A DNA stretch of 64,000 nucleotides from a phage. Location: the NCBI GenBank assembly GCA_016658885.1, contig GCA_016658885.1_4807.1; one strand, given 5' to 3'. Of the stretch, positions 58,668 through 64,000 are shown piece by piece (position 1 is the first letter of the stretch; each line of letters begins with the position of its first letter). Made by a program: the position numbers and the translations under genes. Under the pieces are notes generated by a model. The model did no database searches. It worked only from the letters and a program-made list of their open reading frames with translations, and had not been told where the DNA came from.

Positions 58668-60086
58668 TTATTCCCCTTTCAACCAAGCTTCAAATGCTTC
58701 GTCAGTTGCTGCAGAATCCGCAGCGGCCTTTTGTTTTGCGACTACACGCTGTTTTTGACCGTGTTCAACGCCGCGTAGATAATTATCCACCACGTCAAAC
58801 TCAGCACCATCAACGCACTTCAAGCCTAACTTTTTAGCGCCATATTTCGCTACGGACTTGGAGTCCATAGTTGCATGATCAAAGGCACCAACAACTTTAG
58901 ACAGGCGCTGGTAGAGGCTATTCTTACGAGCAGAATCAGCGTAGAAAGCAGCAACTGCTGAATCAGATGCCATTGAGTGTTCCCCTTTTGCTGGACCTGG
59001 CGACGCTTTCGCCGCTTTTGTCGGTTTGTCATCTTTTTCGACCGAAGCCCCCTTTACGTTGCTGTTTTGCAGGCCGCTAACCACATCTTCAGCTTTGTCG
59101 CAAGGTGATACATCTTCAGCCTTGACTTCAACTTCTTCGTCTTTGACTTCGGCTTCAACTTCTTCTTCATCACCTACCGCGCCACCTTTCAGTTTTGCAA
59201 TAAGTGCTTCGATTTGGCTGATCAGTTGCGGAAGCTCGCCGCCAGCGTGAGATTCAGTTTCAACTTCAAACTTCTCTTCACCTTCTGGAGTCTCTTCAGC
59301 TTCTGCTTTGACTTCTGGATCAACCATCACTTCTTCACGTTCTTCGGTTGAATCCTTCTCTTCTGCTTTCACTTCAACTTCGTCCTGATGAGCAGCTTCG
59401 GTGCTCTCTTCATTCAGAAATTGTTCGAGCGCAGGGATCAGTGATTTCAGCTGTTCAACAGCATTATCACGCGCTTTACCTTTTAACGGTTTTGGCATGT
59501 CTAAATCCTCGTTGGATGGTGTTACAGTCGTCAAACAAAGATGGTCAAAGCAACGACCATCCAGCACCCGTGCACCTGGTACTCGACCAACGTCCACGAG
59601 AGCAATGTGGTTGCCGCGAAGAGTTGTTTGTACCACTTCATACGGCTGCCCGTCAAACTCTCCAGACTGTATGATGAATTCACAGTCATAGCCCAAAGAC
59701 AAGTCAACCTTTCCAGAATCGATGGCCTTCTTCAGACGACGGCTAAAAACTTTAAGGTCGCCGCGCATCCATGGCTTGTCATAATAAACATTGCCAGTTA
59801 GAACGCCATCAACGCCATACTCTTCGGGTGCTGTGTTATCCTCATCACCTTCGAATCCAGAAAGCATTTCGTGATTGTCGATGAAAGGGATATTTTTGAA
59901 TGAATCTATCGCTTCGGGGTCTTTCACCGCTGACTCTGGGCGATAAACTTTTACGATGCGATTCGGATCACCATCAAGTCCAACCTGACCTGCAGAATAA
60001 TCAAAAATGCCAAATGACGAAATGGGACAACCCACAATCGTCAAGAATCCATTTTTGTCAATTTCGCGTGCCGTTTGCATTCGCAT
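58668..60086 (-). CDS. prohead protease / scaffold-like protein
   Basis: Globular N-terminal domain followed by highly acidic EEVEAEVKDEEVEVKAED region. Confidence 0.5.
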   Translation of the reverse strand: MRMQTAREIDKNGFLTIVGCPISSFGIFDYSAGQVGLDGDPNRIVKVYRPESAVKDPEAIDSFKNIPFIDNHEMLSGFEGDEDNTAPEEYGVDGVLTGNVYYDKPWMRGDLKVFSRRLKKAIDSGKVDLSLGYDCEFIIQSGEFDGQPYEVVQTTLRGNHIALVDVGRVPGARVLDGRCFDHLCLTTVTPSNEDLDMPKPLKGKARDNAVEQLKSLIPALEQFLNEESTEAAHQDEVEVKAEEKDSTEEREEVMVDPEVKAEAEETPEGEEKFEVETESHAGGELPQLISQIEALIAKLKGGAVGDEEEVEAEVKDEEVEVKAEDVSPCDKAEDVVSGLQNSNVKGASVEKDDKPTKAAKASPGPAKGEHSMASDSAVAAFYADSARKNSLYQRLSKVVGAFDHATMDSKSVAKYGAKKLGLKCVDGAEFDVVDNYLRGVEHGQKQRVVAKQKAAADSAATDEAFEAWLKGE

Positions 60087-60713: not shown

Positions 60714-61565
60714 TCAGATAATTGGTATTTTCCTGCACTTGCAGTGTATTGCCCATCCAGGAGGACCGATGTCACCCTTTTTGAACTTCAATTCGCCGCC
60801 AACTTCCCATAGGCGCTTGTCATCAAGTTTGAATCTCATTCCGTCGACGTGTTCATGAGAGATTCGCGGCTCCTTTCCTGCTCCTGAGTGCGCCCACTCA
60901 AATTCTTCGACTCCATTCTGGCGCATCCTTTCATCGCTTAGAACGCAATACAATTTGCTTGTCTGGTCTTTAGCGATTAAGTCGACTCTCTTTGCAGAGA
61001 AGTGCTTTACGTTTCGCAACGCCGCCTGAATGCCTGACGTGCCTTGCTGGGCTGGGTCAGGCGAAGTCAGCGAAAGCATGACTGCTTCGTACACTCTGTT
61101 GTGAATATCCTCGCCGACCTTAGTAACTAGAGTCGTGTTAAACGTCTCGCTTGTTCTAAGAGTGTTCTCAACGAATTTGTTATATGTGGCCTTTGGCGCT
61201 TCTATGCCTGCGGACTTAAGGCTTGCGAATGTAGCAGAAGTGGCACCCTTTTCGACCGATTTGATAAAATCAGCGGCAATCTTCGACCCAACACGTGCAA
61301 ATGCCTTTGCCCATTTCAGTTGCAGCCGTTTCATAAGGGTCTGGAATGTCGAATCAGCAGAGTCTTGCGCAAAGAACTTCTGCACCTGCTTCTTTTCAAG
61401 CCACTCTGAAATTCCTGCCTGATAGTCATCAATCATCGCATAGCAAAGACCTTTCATCTCACGACGGTAGGCCATCGCAATAGCGTTTGATGGGATTATC
61501 GGACTGCCGCGCCCGATTCTATCGGGTGAGCGGCGTTCACGTTTTTTCGAAGCTTTAAAAGCCAT
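60714..61565 (-). CDS. minor head / head morphogenesis protein (Mu F-like)
   Basis: Start trimmed to MAFKASKK; position directly after portal gene. Confidence 0.5.
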   Translation of the reverse strand: MAFKASKKRERRSPDRIGRGSPIIPSNAIAMAYRREMKGLCYAMIDDYQAGISEWLEKKQVQKFFAQDSADSTFQTLMKRLQLKWAKAFARVGSKIAADFIKSVEKGATSATFASLKSAGIEAPKATYNKFVENTLRTSETFNTTLVTKVGEDIHNRVYEAVMLSLTSPDPAQQGTSGIQAALRNVKHFSAKRVDLIAKDQTSKLYCVLSDERMRQNGVEEFEWAHSGAGKEPRISHEHVDGMRFKLDDKRLWEVGGELKFKKGDIGPPGWAIHCKCRKIPII

Positions 61566-61566
61566 A

Positions 61567-63942
61567 TCAACCTTGCTTCGGTGAATTAGTAGGATTATTG
61601 AGCGCTCCGTATGCTTGAGAGCAATCACCCTTCAACCACTCCTTGAATGAGTCTACATCTAATTCGTGGATTGAATCGAATCCATTCCAACCGTTACCAA
61701 ATGACGCCTGATAAGCTTCTTTAGCTTCTTCTGCTGAATCGAATCCAAGCATGCATTTGTGTTCATCAAATTCGCCAGAATAATTATCATTTTGGTTAAC
61801 GATGAATACTTTAGGCGACTTCATATTTGGTCCAACAAAGCAGTCGACTTCATCACCATCAGCACCCTTGGTGCCTTTGATGAATCCGTAGTGGTGCGCC
61901 ATTTTGACTGCCCATTCACCATCAAGACTGTTACCCCTGCGAATGCTGTTGCGAGGATTCTCGATGCCAAGAATCATCCCGTGCAACTTCATCTTAGGCA
62001 GCGACGCTGCATCCATCTTCCCTACGTTGTGTCGCAAGTTGACGACATTTCCTTTTACGCTTGGAATCGTGGACGGTTGCACCGACCTTGCATCTTTTTG
62101 AGGGTCAAAATCCACATCCTGACCTTCTTTAAGGTAATAGTCAGCAATACCCTCCAGACCTTCTTTCAGTTGCGTTAGGACATCAACGTGATGGCTTGAT
62201 TCGTCATCGGTATCATCCATGTTAATCTCAACTGGTGCCCTGTCAGGGTTTTCTGCCAACTCACCACGCGCGGCACCTTCCGGCATTATACCAGTCTCGC
62301 TATAGAACTGGCCGCTCATCTTGACAACATCAGCCTTGGCCTGTTCAATATCGGCCTTACCTTGCAGAACTTCACCAGCAGACTTGCCAAGCAATGCCAT
62401 ATTCTCTGGAGACATCCCTGGGGTTTCTTCTGCTGCTTCTTCCGGCAAACGGTTGTAGCCGCTGTTTTTGTCGTCCTTGATGCGGTCGCGCTCTTCATCA
62501 GGGGAGATTACGCCAGCATCGATGAGAGTCTTACCAGTATTCGCTCGTTTGTCGTTAATCTCTGCAAGCTGAGTAGCAGTAAGTGAACCAACTGGCTCCC
62601 ATGCCACTTTAACGTCGACTTCCACGCCTTCAGATTTCAAAAGGATTTTATAGTGACGGTCCAGAATCTTCGTCAAATCGTGCTGCTGACAAGTTTCCAA
62701 TTCTTCGTGATAGCTGACCATCTCGAACTCACCAGTGGCGTTAAAGCCTTTAGGTGACGTCCCTAACAGTTTTGTCGACGGCACTTTTGCGATTGCGGCC
62801 ACCAGCTGGTACTGGTTCATGATGATGCTGTCGAAGTCTGACAAGTTGATGTCGAACTGGTCCATTTCTTCTTTCTGACCAAGCACTTTGACTGCATAGT
62901 TGTCGCGGTACTTGATCCACATCATCAGACGTTCTGCAAAAGACCGCTCATTGGCAATAGCCTTGTCAACGTCGGTCCGCAGCGTCGTTGTACGCTTGGA
63001 CATCGCCAGCAATGGCGCTTCGTTAGCGGTACGTTCAGCGGCATAGATGCGTTCATAAATCTGCTGAGTCAGAGGAATGCCGCCGTAAATATAAGTCGGC
63101 TTGAGAATATCAGCTGGCTCATCGTTGCGCAAGATTATGAGGTGGCTGCGATGATAACGTTGTCCGCTGATTACCCAATATTCTGGGTCATAGAAGTGCT
63201 GTGATGCAGGGTCTGCTGTGTTTTCAGACGTCAGAAACGGCATCATCCAATAAGGGTCAACCTGAATGATTCCCTTATAAGACCCCTTTGTCACACCATC
63301 AATGTTAAAAGGCTTGCTGTAATATTCTGGGTCATCGCTACGCACATCAAATATGATGACGCGGATACCAAAAATATTTTTGAATCGTTCGGCTTCAACT
63401 AAGTGCTCTTTGATATTAAATTCTTTATCAATTTGCTTTAGGCGTTCGCTTGCCTGTACTGACAATTCTGACTCAGAACTGGATTTAACTTCCCAACCTT
63501 TACGGACCGCATCGCGGCCTACCATGGAACACGCCTTGTTCACCAGCCAATGCTGTGCGATGATGGCACAAGCTTGATAGCCGATGAATGACTGTGACAA
63601 ATACCAGTTTTGAAGTTGAATAGGTACTGTGTATGGGTTGACTTGCCCTTCTGAACTGATGTTCTTTAAGGCATTATCCATAACCTTTTTGGATACTGTT
63701 GCGGAATCGACTGAACGACCTTTTATGATTGCAACACCATCGCCATTAATATCAGGCTCATATAAAGGGAAGTCATCAACCGTTTTAAAGGTCGGTCGAT
63801 TGCTTTCAGTCTTTTCCCAGCGTTGACCGCTGCCGCGCCTTGCAAGGCGTTCAAACGGTGCCAATGGGTCGCCTGGCGGCATCTCCGCTGGTTCGGCTTC
63901 TGGTTGCGTCTTCTCCCAGAGTTTTATGCCAAGAATTTTCAT
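61567..63942 (-). CDS. portal protein with C-terminal inorganic-pyrophosphatase-like extension
   Basis: About 790 aa; start ATG 63942 after AGGTGG; C-terminal HYGFIKGTKGADGDEVDCFV resembles PPase NYGYI...DGDPVDVLV. Confidence 0.55.
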   Translation of the reverse strand: MKILGIKLWEKTQPEAEPAEMPPGDPLAPFERLARRGSGQRWEKTESNRPTFKTVDDFPLYEPDINGDGVAIIKGRSVDSATVSKKVMDNALKNISSEGQVNPYTVPIQLQNWYLSQSFIGYQACAIIAQHWLVNKACSMVGRDAVRKGWEVKSSSESELSVQASERLKQIDKEFNIKEHLVEAERFKNIFGIRVIIFDVRSDDPEYYSKPFNIDGVTKGSYKGIIQVDPYWMMPFLTSENTADPASQHFYDPEYWVISGQRYHRSHLIILRNDEPADILKPTYIYGGIPLTQQIYERIYAAERTANEAPLLAMSKRTTTLRTDVDKAIANERSFAERLMMWIKYRDNYAVKVLGQKEEMDQFDINLSDFDSIIMNQYQLVAAIAKVPSTKLLGTSPKGFNATGEFEMVSYHEELETCQQHDLTKILDRHYKILLKSEGVEVDVKVAWEPVGSLTATQLAEINDKRANTGKTLIDAGVISPDEERDRIKDDKNSGYNRLPEEAAEETPGMSPENMALLGKSAGEVLQGKADIEQAKADVVKMSGQFYSETGIMPEGAARGELAENPDRAPVEINMDDTDDESSHHVDVLTQLKEGLEGIADYYLKEGQDVDFDPQKDARSVQPSTIPSVKGNVVNLRHNVGKMDAASLPKMKLHGMILGIENPRNSIRRGNSLDGEWAVKMAHHYGFIKGTKGADGDEVDCFVGPNMKSPKVFIVNQNDNYSGEFDEHKCMLGFDSAEEAKEAYQASFGNGWNGFDSIHELDVDSFKEWLKGDCSQAYGALNNPTNSPKQG

Positions 63943-64000
63943 TGTTAACGCCACCTGACAGTGAAAGGGAATCAATCTATATTATAAATATTCATGTGTT

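Follow-up and report, generated by a model that had tools for sequence, protein, structure and literature searches.

A portal protein with a divergent inorganic pyrophosphatase-like domain at its C-terminus in an Escherichia coli Wifcevirus

We analyzed a stretch of phage DNA of 64,000 nucleotides (contig GCA_016658885.1_4807.1 of GenBank assembly GCA_016658885.1; hereafter the window), in which one open reading frame (ORF) encodes a phage portal protein with a long C-terminal extension. The evidence supports the view that the C-terminal ~130 residues form a divergent, shortened family I inorganic pyrophosphatase (PPase)-like domain, the InPase domain of Pfam, fused to a genuine portal. This domain is present in mature virions, nominally in twelve copies. 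An initial annotation, made from the sequence alone, had placed an ORF of about 790 residues at these positions without giving its strand. We found 791 codons on the minus strand, from the ATG at 63942 to a TGA stop at 61567-61569. A 112-sequence alignment, a full-length AlphaFold model and the solved homologs of phages E217 and Pa193 together divide the protein into five parts, listed here with the elements discussed below (pLDDT, predicted local distance difference test).

61567..63942, minus: portal-InPase ORF, 791 aa plus TGA stop, 88.7 kDa
63951..63956, minus: Shine-Dalgarno sequence AGGTGG, 8 nt upstream of the ATG at 63942, read from the sequence
63625..63942, minus: N-terminal arm, aa 1-106, poorly conserved, pLDDT 31-47
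62293..63624, minus: portal core, aa 107-550, Phage_portal_3 fold, highly conserved, with the barrel helix (aa ~512-550) at its C-terminal end
62014..62292, minus: acidic variable linker, aa 551-643, A/G/P-rich, 82-160 aa long in homologs
62137-62202, minus: linker helix, aa 581-602, confidently predicted (pLDDT 71-89), L..L...L pattern conserved
61618..62013, minus: InPase domain, aa 644-775, compact (pLDDT 85-96), an oligonucleotide/oligosaccharide-binding (OB) fold like that of family I pyrophosphatases but shortened
61840-61860, minus: DGDEVDC (D695-C701), family I PPase metal-binding signature DxDxxD, aligned to D65-D70 of the E. coli PPase
61567..61617, minus: C-terminal tail, aa 776-791, plus stop, variable, predicted with low confidence

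The pyrophosphatase-like nature of the C-terminus had first been suggested from the peptides IENPRNS...DGEWAVKMAHHYGFIKGTKGADGDEVDCFVGP, which we located at aa 660-705, and it was borne out by profile searches. The Pfam family InPase 'Inorganic Pyrophosphatase' (PF18823) matches aa 649-771 with 158.2 bits (cut-off 26.8; E=1.4e-46), over positions 12-135 of the 135 positions of the profile. The predicted fold agrees with this match: an AlphaFold model of the domain, built on a 32-sequence alignment, has a pLDDT of 89.7 and a predicted template modeling score of 0.83 and shows the OB-fold architecture of PPases. When the family profile was compared with the PDB, PPases made up 30 of the 34 weak matches (best, 1ygz, E=0.003), and hhalign aligned the InPase profile to the E. 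coli PPase with a probability of 90%, confined to a 27-column YGYI..DGDxVD core. The resemblance to family I that had been claimed thus stands for a divergent and shortened domain and not for a canonical PPase, as the match to the classical family PF00719 stays below threshold (15.6 bits vs a cut-off of 23.5) and covers only aa 679-704. Compared with the family I enzyme of E. coli (Ppa, PF00719, EC 3.6.1.1), the domain has ~130 rather than 175 residues, with 13-20% identity and a template modeling score of 0.40-0.48, and it is fused to a structural protein, whereas the family I enzyme is a free hexamer. The InPase clade is described as being without the beta-hairpin insert of solved PPases and as having four conserved acidic metal-binding residues (Iyer et al. 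2017, PMC5512222). PADLOC gave no match for the InPase domain.

The active site of classical PPases is made up of 13-14 residues, which in E. coli are E20, K29, E31, R43, Y51, Y55, D65, D67, D70, D97, D102, K104, Y141, and K142. In the window protein, the conserved core consists of E661, R668, Y685, D695-x-D697-x-x-D700, D726-E727-x-K729, Y744, and K767, along with Q717 and A740. The acidic metal-binding residues of the PF18823 family (E661, D695, D697, D700, and D726/E727) are all present. Their E. coli equivalents are E20 for E661, approximately K29 for R668, Y55 for Y685, D65/D67/D70 for D695/D697/D700, and the E101/D102/K104 region for D726-E727-x-K729; outside the YGYI..DGDxVD core, this mapping rests on secondary structure and motif order rather than on a superposition. 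On the same kind of alignment, Y744 and K767 may stand in for E. coli Y141 and K142. The DGDEVDC stretch fits D[SGDN]D[PE][LIVMF]D[LIVMGAC], which we take to be the PROSITE pattern of family I. This pattern has a single match in the six-frame translation of the window, was found in 24 of 20,000 shuffles of the protein, and is kept at this position by 97 of 120 fusion homologs.

Conservation of these residues extends well beyond the Wifcevirus proteins. E661, R668, Y685, D695, D700, D726, E727, and K729 show no or almost no variation across the 112 portal fusions, in which the linker is variable, and the presumed general-base position, D697, is D or E across homologs. Twelve polar residues are 95-99% conserved in 163 instances of the domain, which were drawn from the 150 top-scoring of more than 12,000 cluster representatives. 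The metal-binding and catalytic core therefore appears, at the level of sequence, to be kept, while the phosphate-binding site appears to be partly different. Such a combination fits an active phosphoanhydride hydrolase whose substrate is not necessarily free pyrophosphate (PPi).

The rest of the protein is a genuine portal. Pfam Phage_portal_3 (PF06381, formerly DUF1073) matches aa 122-468 (E=4e-88; 295.9 bits vs a cut-off of 33.8), and TIGR01555 matches below its cut-off (92 vs 196 bits). Homology to solved portal structures is extensive (Pa193 gp19, 9b41, E=2e-250; E217 gp19, 8fvh, E=1e-188; Pam3 portal, E=1e-14). As the initial annotation had stated, the protein is longer than typical portals; the excess amounts to ~240 aa past the portal barrel and ~100 aa at the N-terminus. 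Conservation in the N-terminal arm is concentrated in two stretches, near aa 21-30 and 51-60, and a Pfam search of this arm and of the linker returned no match at E<=5. The region of aa 531-643 has a net charge of -12. Within the linker, ~30 residues (aa 551-579) are modeled with very low confidence (pLDDT 30-40) and are probably disordered, while the predicted helix next to them (aa 581-602) could serve the arm in interaction or oligomerization.

Portal and InPase domain are parts of one gene. No frameshift or stop that would separate two genes, an event that the initial annotation had named as refuting, was found: both domains lie on one continuous ORF in 120 of the 120 best homologs (47-98% identical), and tblastn gave a single unbroken alignment in all Wifcevirus genomes. 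In addition, the PHROGs family phrog_4660 matches aa 16-777, that is, the portal-InPase fusion is a catalogued family in itself. Two database records, OP172789.1 (ECO71P1) and PV464738.1 (RCIP0319), list two annotated 'hypothetical proteins' under the portal match; this is probably an annotation inconsistency, as the tblastn alignment is unbroken over 791 aa in these records as well. They are what could be cited for an assembly or sequencing artefact that joins the portal gene to a separate downstream gene. This explanation is refuted by the unbroken matches and the 120 continuous homologs, by the PDB depositors, who list gp19 as a protein of 765 aa, and by virion peptides that derive from both halves of the protein. 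There is also no plausible internal start for a separate product. M643 is preceded by a Shine-Dalgarno-like AGGGA with a spacing of only 2 nt to the ATG, and this methionine is found in just 46 of 112 aligned sequences; neither M651 nor M656 is preceded by a Shine-Dalgarno sequence or is conserved. A free InPase made from an internal start was rejected on the same grounds. At the 5' end of the gene, homolog annotations do not use the TTG at 63975, which would give an 802-aa version.

The presence of the domain in virions is documented by published proteomics. Liquid chromatography-tandem mass spectrometry of CsCl-purified virions of phages vB_Eco4M-7 and ECML-117 yielded peptides across the portal protein (PMC7048862, supplementary files 3 and 4), and the portals of these two phages are 99% identical to the window protein. 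Mapped to the latter, the peptides span aa 12-789. They come from the N-terminal arm (aa 12-32 and 45-53), the portal core and crown, the linker (aa 550-559, 569-605, and 631-637), the InPase domain (aa 653-664, 681-689, 693-708, and 712-741), and the C-terminal end (aa 772-789). Those of the InPase region are LHGMILGIENPR, MPHHYGFIK, GADGDEVDCFVGPNMK, VFI(I/V)NQNDNYSGEFDEHK, CMLGFDSAEEAK, and GDCSQAYGALNNPTNSPK. The spectra are unevenly distributed, with 439 of 559 from aa 644-791 and 39 from the 430-aa portal core (PMC7048862, supplementary file 3); it is possible that the core digests poorly and that the arm is exposed. All peptides are fully tryptic and are spread over the portal crown, the linker and InPase, a pattern compatible with an arm that is either attached or cut.

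The location of the domain within the virion follows, by analogy, from the structure of E217. The cryo-electron microscopy (cryo-EM) portal models of this phage and of Pa193 comprise residues 97-528 and 94-528, respectively, of 765, with no density for residues 529-765. The C-terminal barrel of E217 points into the head, is folded only with DNA present and unfolds after DNA ejection. Since this barrel projects into the head, the arm that follows it would start inside the capsid, and an InPase arm that is flexible or non-symmetric would explain the missing density past residue 528. With twelve portal subunits per ring, twelve copies of InPase would be enclosed in the head together with the DNA. 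The N-terminal 93-96 residues are likewise invisible in the Pa193 and E217 maps; according to the Pa193 paper, the first 93 portal residues are undetected by LC-MS and may be cleaved, whereas the N-terminal arm was detected in the Wifcevirus virions. Proteomics of ghost particles of the Pbunavirus SCUT-S1 reached 59% coverage of the protein with no peptides listed and is silent on the fate of the arm after DNA release.

The fusion is widespread. The extension was described at first as an unusual feature of a portal, which does not hold for this lineage: among the phage genomes searched, 471 records encode an InPase domain, ~350 of them the full portal-InPase fusion, lineage-wide, and the fusion was described in 2017 (PMC5512222). 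PF06381 and PF18823 occur together in 120 of the 120 best full-length homologs of a metagenome-scale protein collection, so that homologous portals do carry the extension, a check that had been proposed. More distant full-length homologs are found in Pantoea phages Kyle and PA1 (66-69% identical), Burkholderia phage BcepF1 (53%) and Pseudomonas Pbunavirus (~52%). The InPase domain was defined by Iyer, Burroughs, Anand, de Souza, and Aravind (J Bacteriol 2017, PMC5512222), who noted the portal fusion in BcepF1.124 and proposed that InPase is packaged in the virion, is injected and either degrades nucleotides induced by infection or clears PPi. Our literature search on InPase, PF18823 and pyrophosphatase combined with portal or Pbunavirus returned only this paper as relevant, and the E217 and Pa193 structural papers make no mention of a pyrophosphatase domain. 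Given the 2017 description and the Pfam, PHROGs and UniProt entries, the portal-InPase fusion is already known and is no new kind of element.

Clustered at 50% identity, the InPase family as a whole still counts at least 12,237 representatives, and its top matches lie mostly within proteins of 2,000-6,000 aa. In BFVD and PHROGs, these contexts carry names such as 'mega', DarB-like, 'type I restriction enzyme', and 'large polyvalent protein'. Stand-alone InPase genes were found in three settings: beside QueC, an asparagine-synthase-like gene and sugar/methyl-transfer genes (locus L001); behind the gene of a 1,279-aa glycosyltransferase-containing protein within a terminase/structural module (L002); and in a baseplate module (L003). 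With portal adjacency checked, these mixed contexts lend weak support to virion association.

Five portal homologs (P0056, P0060, P0112, P0116, and P0140; 50-53% identical) carry a further C-terminal domain, an ADP-ribosyltransferase (ART) exoenzyme (PF03496, E=1e-15 to 1e-18). Their layout is portal, linker, InPase, a K/A/E-rich spacer of ~250-370 aa and ART. At one locus of this type (L004, 8001-11966), terminase, portal, MuF, and DUF2213 genes form a syntenic module, and a 142-aa ORF with no Pfam match lies directly downstream. In the two sequences read, P0056 and P0060, InPase is followed by an 'EHPRxxNGQFG' motif. Two other relatives differ in length: P0063 (1088 aa) has ~290 extra residues ahead of the portal domain, and P0100 (1038 aa) continues for ~240 residues past InPase, where weak ParB-like/VapB-like matches occur. 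From these two proteins, the arms of this portal family seem to take up additional modules.

We propose that InPase is a Mg2+-dependent phosphoanhydride hydrolase carried in the virion, which would be freed from the portal ring, would then follow the DNA into the cell and would hydrolyze PPi or a pyrophosphate-containing nucleotide-like molecule at the onset of infection. Taken as a whole, this reading has in our estimate an even chance of being correct. Its parts are not equally secure: catalytic activity of the domain is probable, while the chance that it is released from the portal and enters the host is slightly less than even. The proposal follows the 'early-phase effector' logic put forward for polyvalent proteins (Iyer et al. 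2017, PMC5512222). As in these proteins, an effector-type domain sits on a head component and is present in virions; the definition also includes two to fifteen effector domains, often with a peptidase, and the window protein has a single effector-type domain. Relatives with both InPase and ART come closer to it. The company that InPase keeps with virion-packaged polyvalent proteins supports an effector function, as does the addition of ART to the same arm in five relatives. ART enzymes require NAD+ and macromolecular targets, which are unavailable inside the capsid, and T4 Alt is the classical example of an injected ADP-ribosyltransferase.

Several points weigh against this proposal. Portal subunits, as a ring, remain in the capsid after ejection, and delivery of InPase would consequently need a cut in the linker; Pfam detects no peptidase domain in the portal-InPase protein, and no cleavage site was identified. 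An arm that stays tethered cannot reach the cell either: by our own estimate, ~140 unfolded residues of ~3.6 Å each would extend ~500 Å, compared with a tail of ~1,300 Å in Pa193. Only 12 copies of InPase are available per virion. On the enzymatic side, E31 and R43 of the E. coli enzyme have no clear conserved counterpart in sequence alignments and the D97 position is D or N; with the score below the PF00719 threshold, PPi may not be the substrate. Our literature searches, which found only the computational paper of 2017, returned no enzymatic assay of any InPase domain.

Three other explanations were weighed against the proposed delivery of a hydrolase. One of them, which we regard as unlikely but the strongest of the three, is that InPase stays in the head and plays a structural or ion-binding role there, e.g., by binding Mg2+ and phosphate at the packaged DNA or at the DNA end above the barrel, by contributing to genome organization or retention, or as a sensor of head filling. 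The active site of family I PPases is, after all, a Mg2+- and phosphate-binding pocket. The arm is covalently joined to the portal subunit, which stays in the capsid, no cleavage was seen and virion peptides cover the linker; the E217 barrel next to the arm folds only with DNA. A role in organizing DNA at the portal would, however, make no sense for the thousands of InPase domains outside portals, be they part of giant polyvalent proteins or encoded by stand-alone genes beside baseplate or nucleotide-modification genes. With net charges of -12 and -8, the arm is acidic as a whole, which disfavors contact with DNA, relatives place an ART toxin domain on the same arm, and the retention of D697 as D/E with the whole polar constellation suggests catalysis and not binding alone.

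That InPase acts in the cell that makes the phage, prior to assembly or in its course, is less probable still. On free portal or on portal bound to the procapsid, it would then remove PPi or a nucleotide by-product late in infection, favoring DNA synthesis or maturation, and would end up in the virion only incidentally. The terminase motor, however, releases phosphate and not PPi, and the PPase of the host is already abundant and efficient; fusion to the interior-facing end of the portal would sequester InPase within the shell, and the domain is systematically tied to virion-packaged proteins. PPi clearance is nevertheless listed as an alternative by Iyer et al. 2017 (PMC5512222), and one stand-alone InPase gene (L001) adjoins genes for PPi-producing QueC and asparagine-synthase-like enzymes. 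That InPase is a catalytically dead relic, serving as bulk or as a spacer on the portal, would accord with its score below the PF00719 threshold and with the missing classical active-site residues. Conservation makes this very unlikely: twelve polar residues are kept at 95-99% in the 150 best-scoring representatives and are invariant or nearly so in the 112 fusions, while the linker drifts. The delivery of an early hydrolase can also be formulated more specifically, with the portal arm as a pre-loaded anti-defense enzyme. The clipped InPase would enter with the first DNA and destroy a pyrophosphate-linked signal or substrate of the host, e.g., an ADP-ribose-derived or other nucleotide immune messenger, and in the ART-bearing relatives it might process ADP-ribose adducts. 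We consider this version speculative and improbable as it stands.

The phage itself and the neighborhood of the gene are in line with a portal of the PB1-like type. The last 14 kb of the window share 95.5-96.1% DNA identity with the best-matching Wifcevirus genomes, which belong to E. coli/Shigella myophages (WFH, ECML-117, FEC19, vB_Eco4M-7, and Bas98-101), and the protein is 98-99% identical to Wifcevirus proteins annotated 'portal' or 'minor head protein'. The window is thus from a Wifcevirus, a myophage of E. coli with relatives in the Pseudomonas PB1-like Pbunavirus. The same strand carries, downstream, genes for a MuF/SPP1-gp7-like protein, a DUF2213 protein, an E217-gp24-like cement protein and the major capsid protein; the terminase gene lies just past the end of the window in collinear genomes (e.g., vB_Eco4M-7), as expected for the portal position of a head module. 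Two of these neighbors are listed here as context, outside the portal ORF.

60714..61565, minus: MuF/SPP1-gp7-like minor head protein, 283 aa (PF04233; phrog_324, head morphogenesis)
58668-60086, minus: DUF2213 protein of the downstream head module

The MuF-like gene most likely starts at the ATG at 61565, one base past the portal stop (TGAtATG), with a product beginning MAFKASKK, rather than at the GTG at 61628 of the mechanically listed 304-aa ORF, which overlaps the 3' end of the portal gene. The TGAtATG junction suggests that the MuF-like gene is translationally coupled to the portal gene. The DUF2213 protein is named 'head maturation protease' in PHROGs, 'capsid maturation protease' in the vB_Eco4M-7 annotation and 'gp24 scaffolding protein' in PDB entry 9b40 (Pa193). 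It was considered as a prohead protease that could release InPase and was set aside, since its names conflict among sources and no cleavage site is inferable. The family phrog_30637 matches both the portal and the DUF2213 protein, hinting at fused versions elsewhere. The N-terminal peptide of the major capsid protein, ISQTHSR, is present in virions, which suggests that the N-terminus of this protein is not trimmed. Across the whole window (1-64000), ARAGORN detected neither tRNA nor tmRNA genes. The GC content ranges from 41 to 49% in 2-kb bins, and the sign of the GC skew flips near 6-8 kb, ~20 kb and ~40 kb, in agreement with blocks of opposite gene orientation.

Among known systems, the closest is gp124 of BcepF1 (YP_001039808.1), which has the same layout of PF06381 portal, linker and PF18823 domain and is 53% identical over 97% of the query; it comes from another host and genus and is longer (862 aa). 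Pbunavirus gp19 (E217, 8fvh; Pa193, 9b41) is ~52% identical over its full length, with a near-identical HHYGFIKGTKGADGDEVDCFVGPN block, and the head module of these phages, with its MuF-like, DUF2213/gp24, cement and major capsid proteins, matches that of the window. T4 Alt, P1 DarB, MuF-toxin fusions and N4 vRNAP-type proteins likewise place an enzyme inside the head by means of a head component, InPase is a frequent module of giant virion-packaged proteins, and portal relatives add an Alt-like ART to the same arm. In contrast, carriers of the T4 Alt/P1 DarB type are free internal or minor head proteins, whereas the carrier in the window is a portal subunit, which would need an extra release step.

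The carriers of this fusion include therapeutic Pseudomonas phages (E217, Pa193, and PB1-like phages) and phages of E. coli O157, and even the high-resolution virion structures of E217 and Pa193 leave the last 237 residues of the portal unmodeled, a mass of ~312 kDa for the ring (12 x 26 kDa). If InPase is delivered, it would represent a new route of effector delivery and probably a new anti-defense or host-takeover activity. Should the anti-defense version be correct, the portal itself would be the delivery vehicle of an effector, which has so far been demonstrated for no phage. If InPase is not delivered, its conservation on the portal would point to an unrecognized internal function of portal C-terminal arms.

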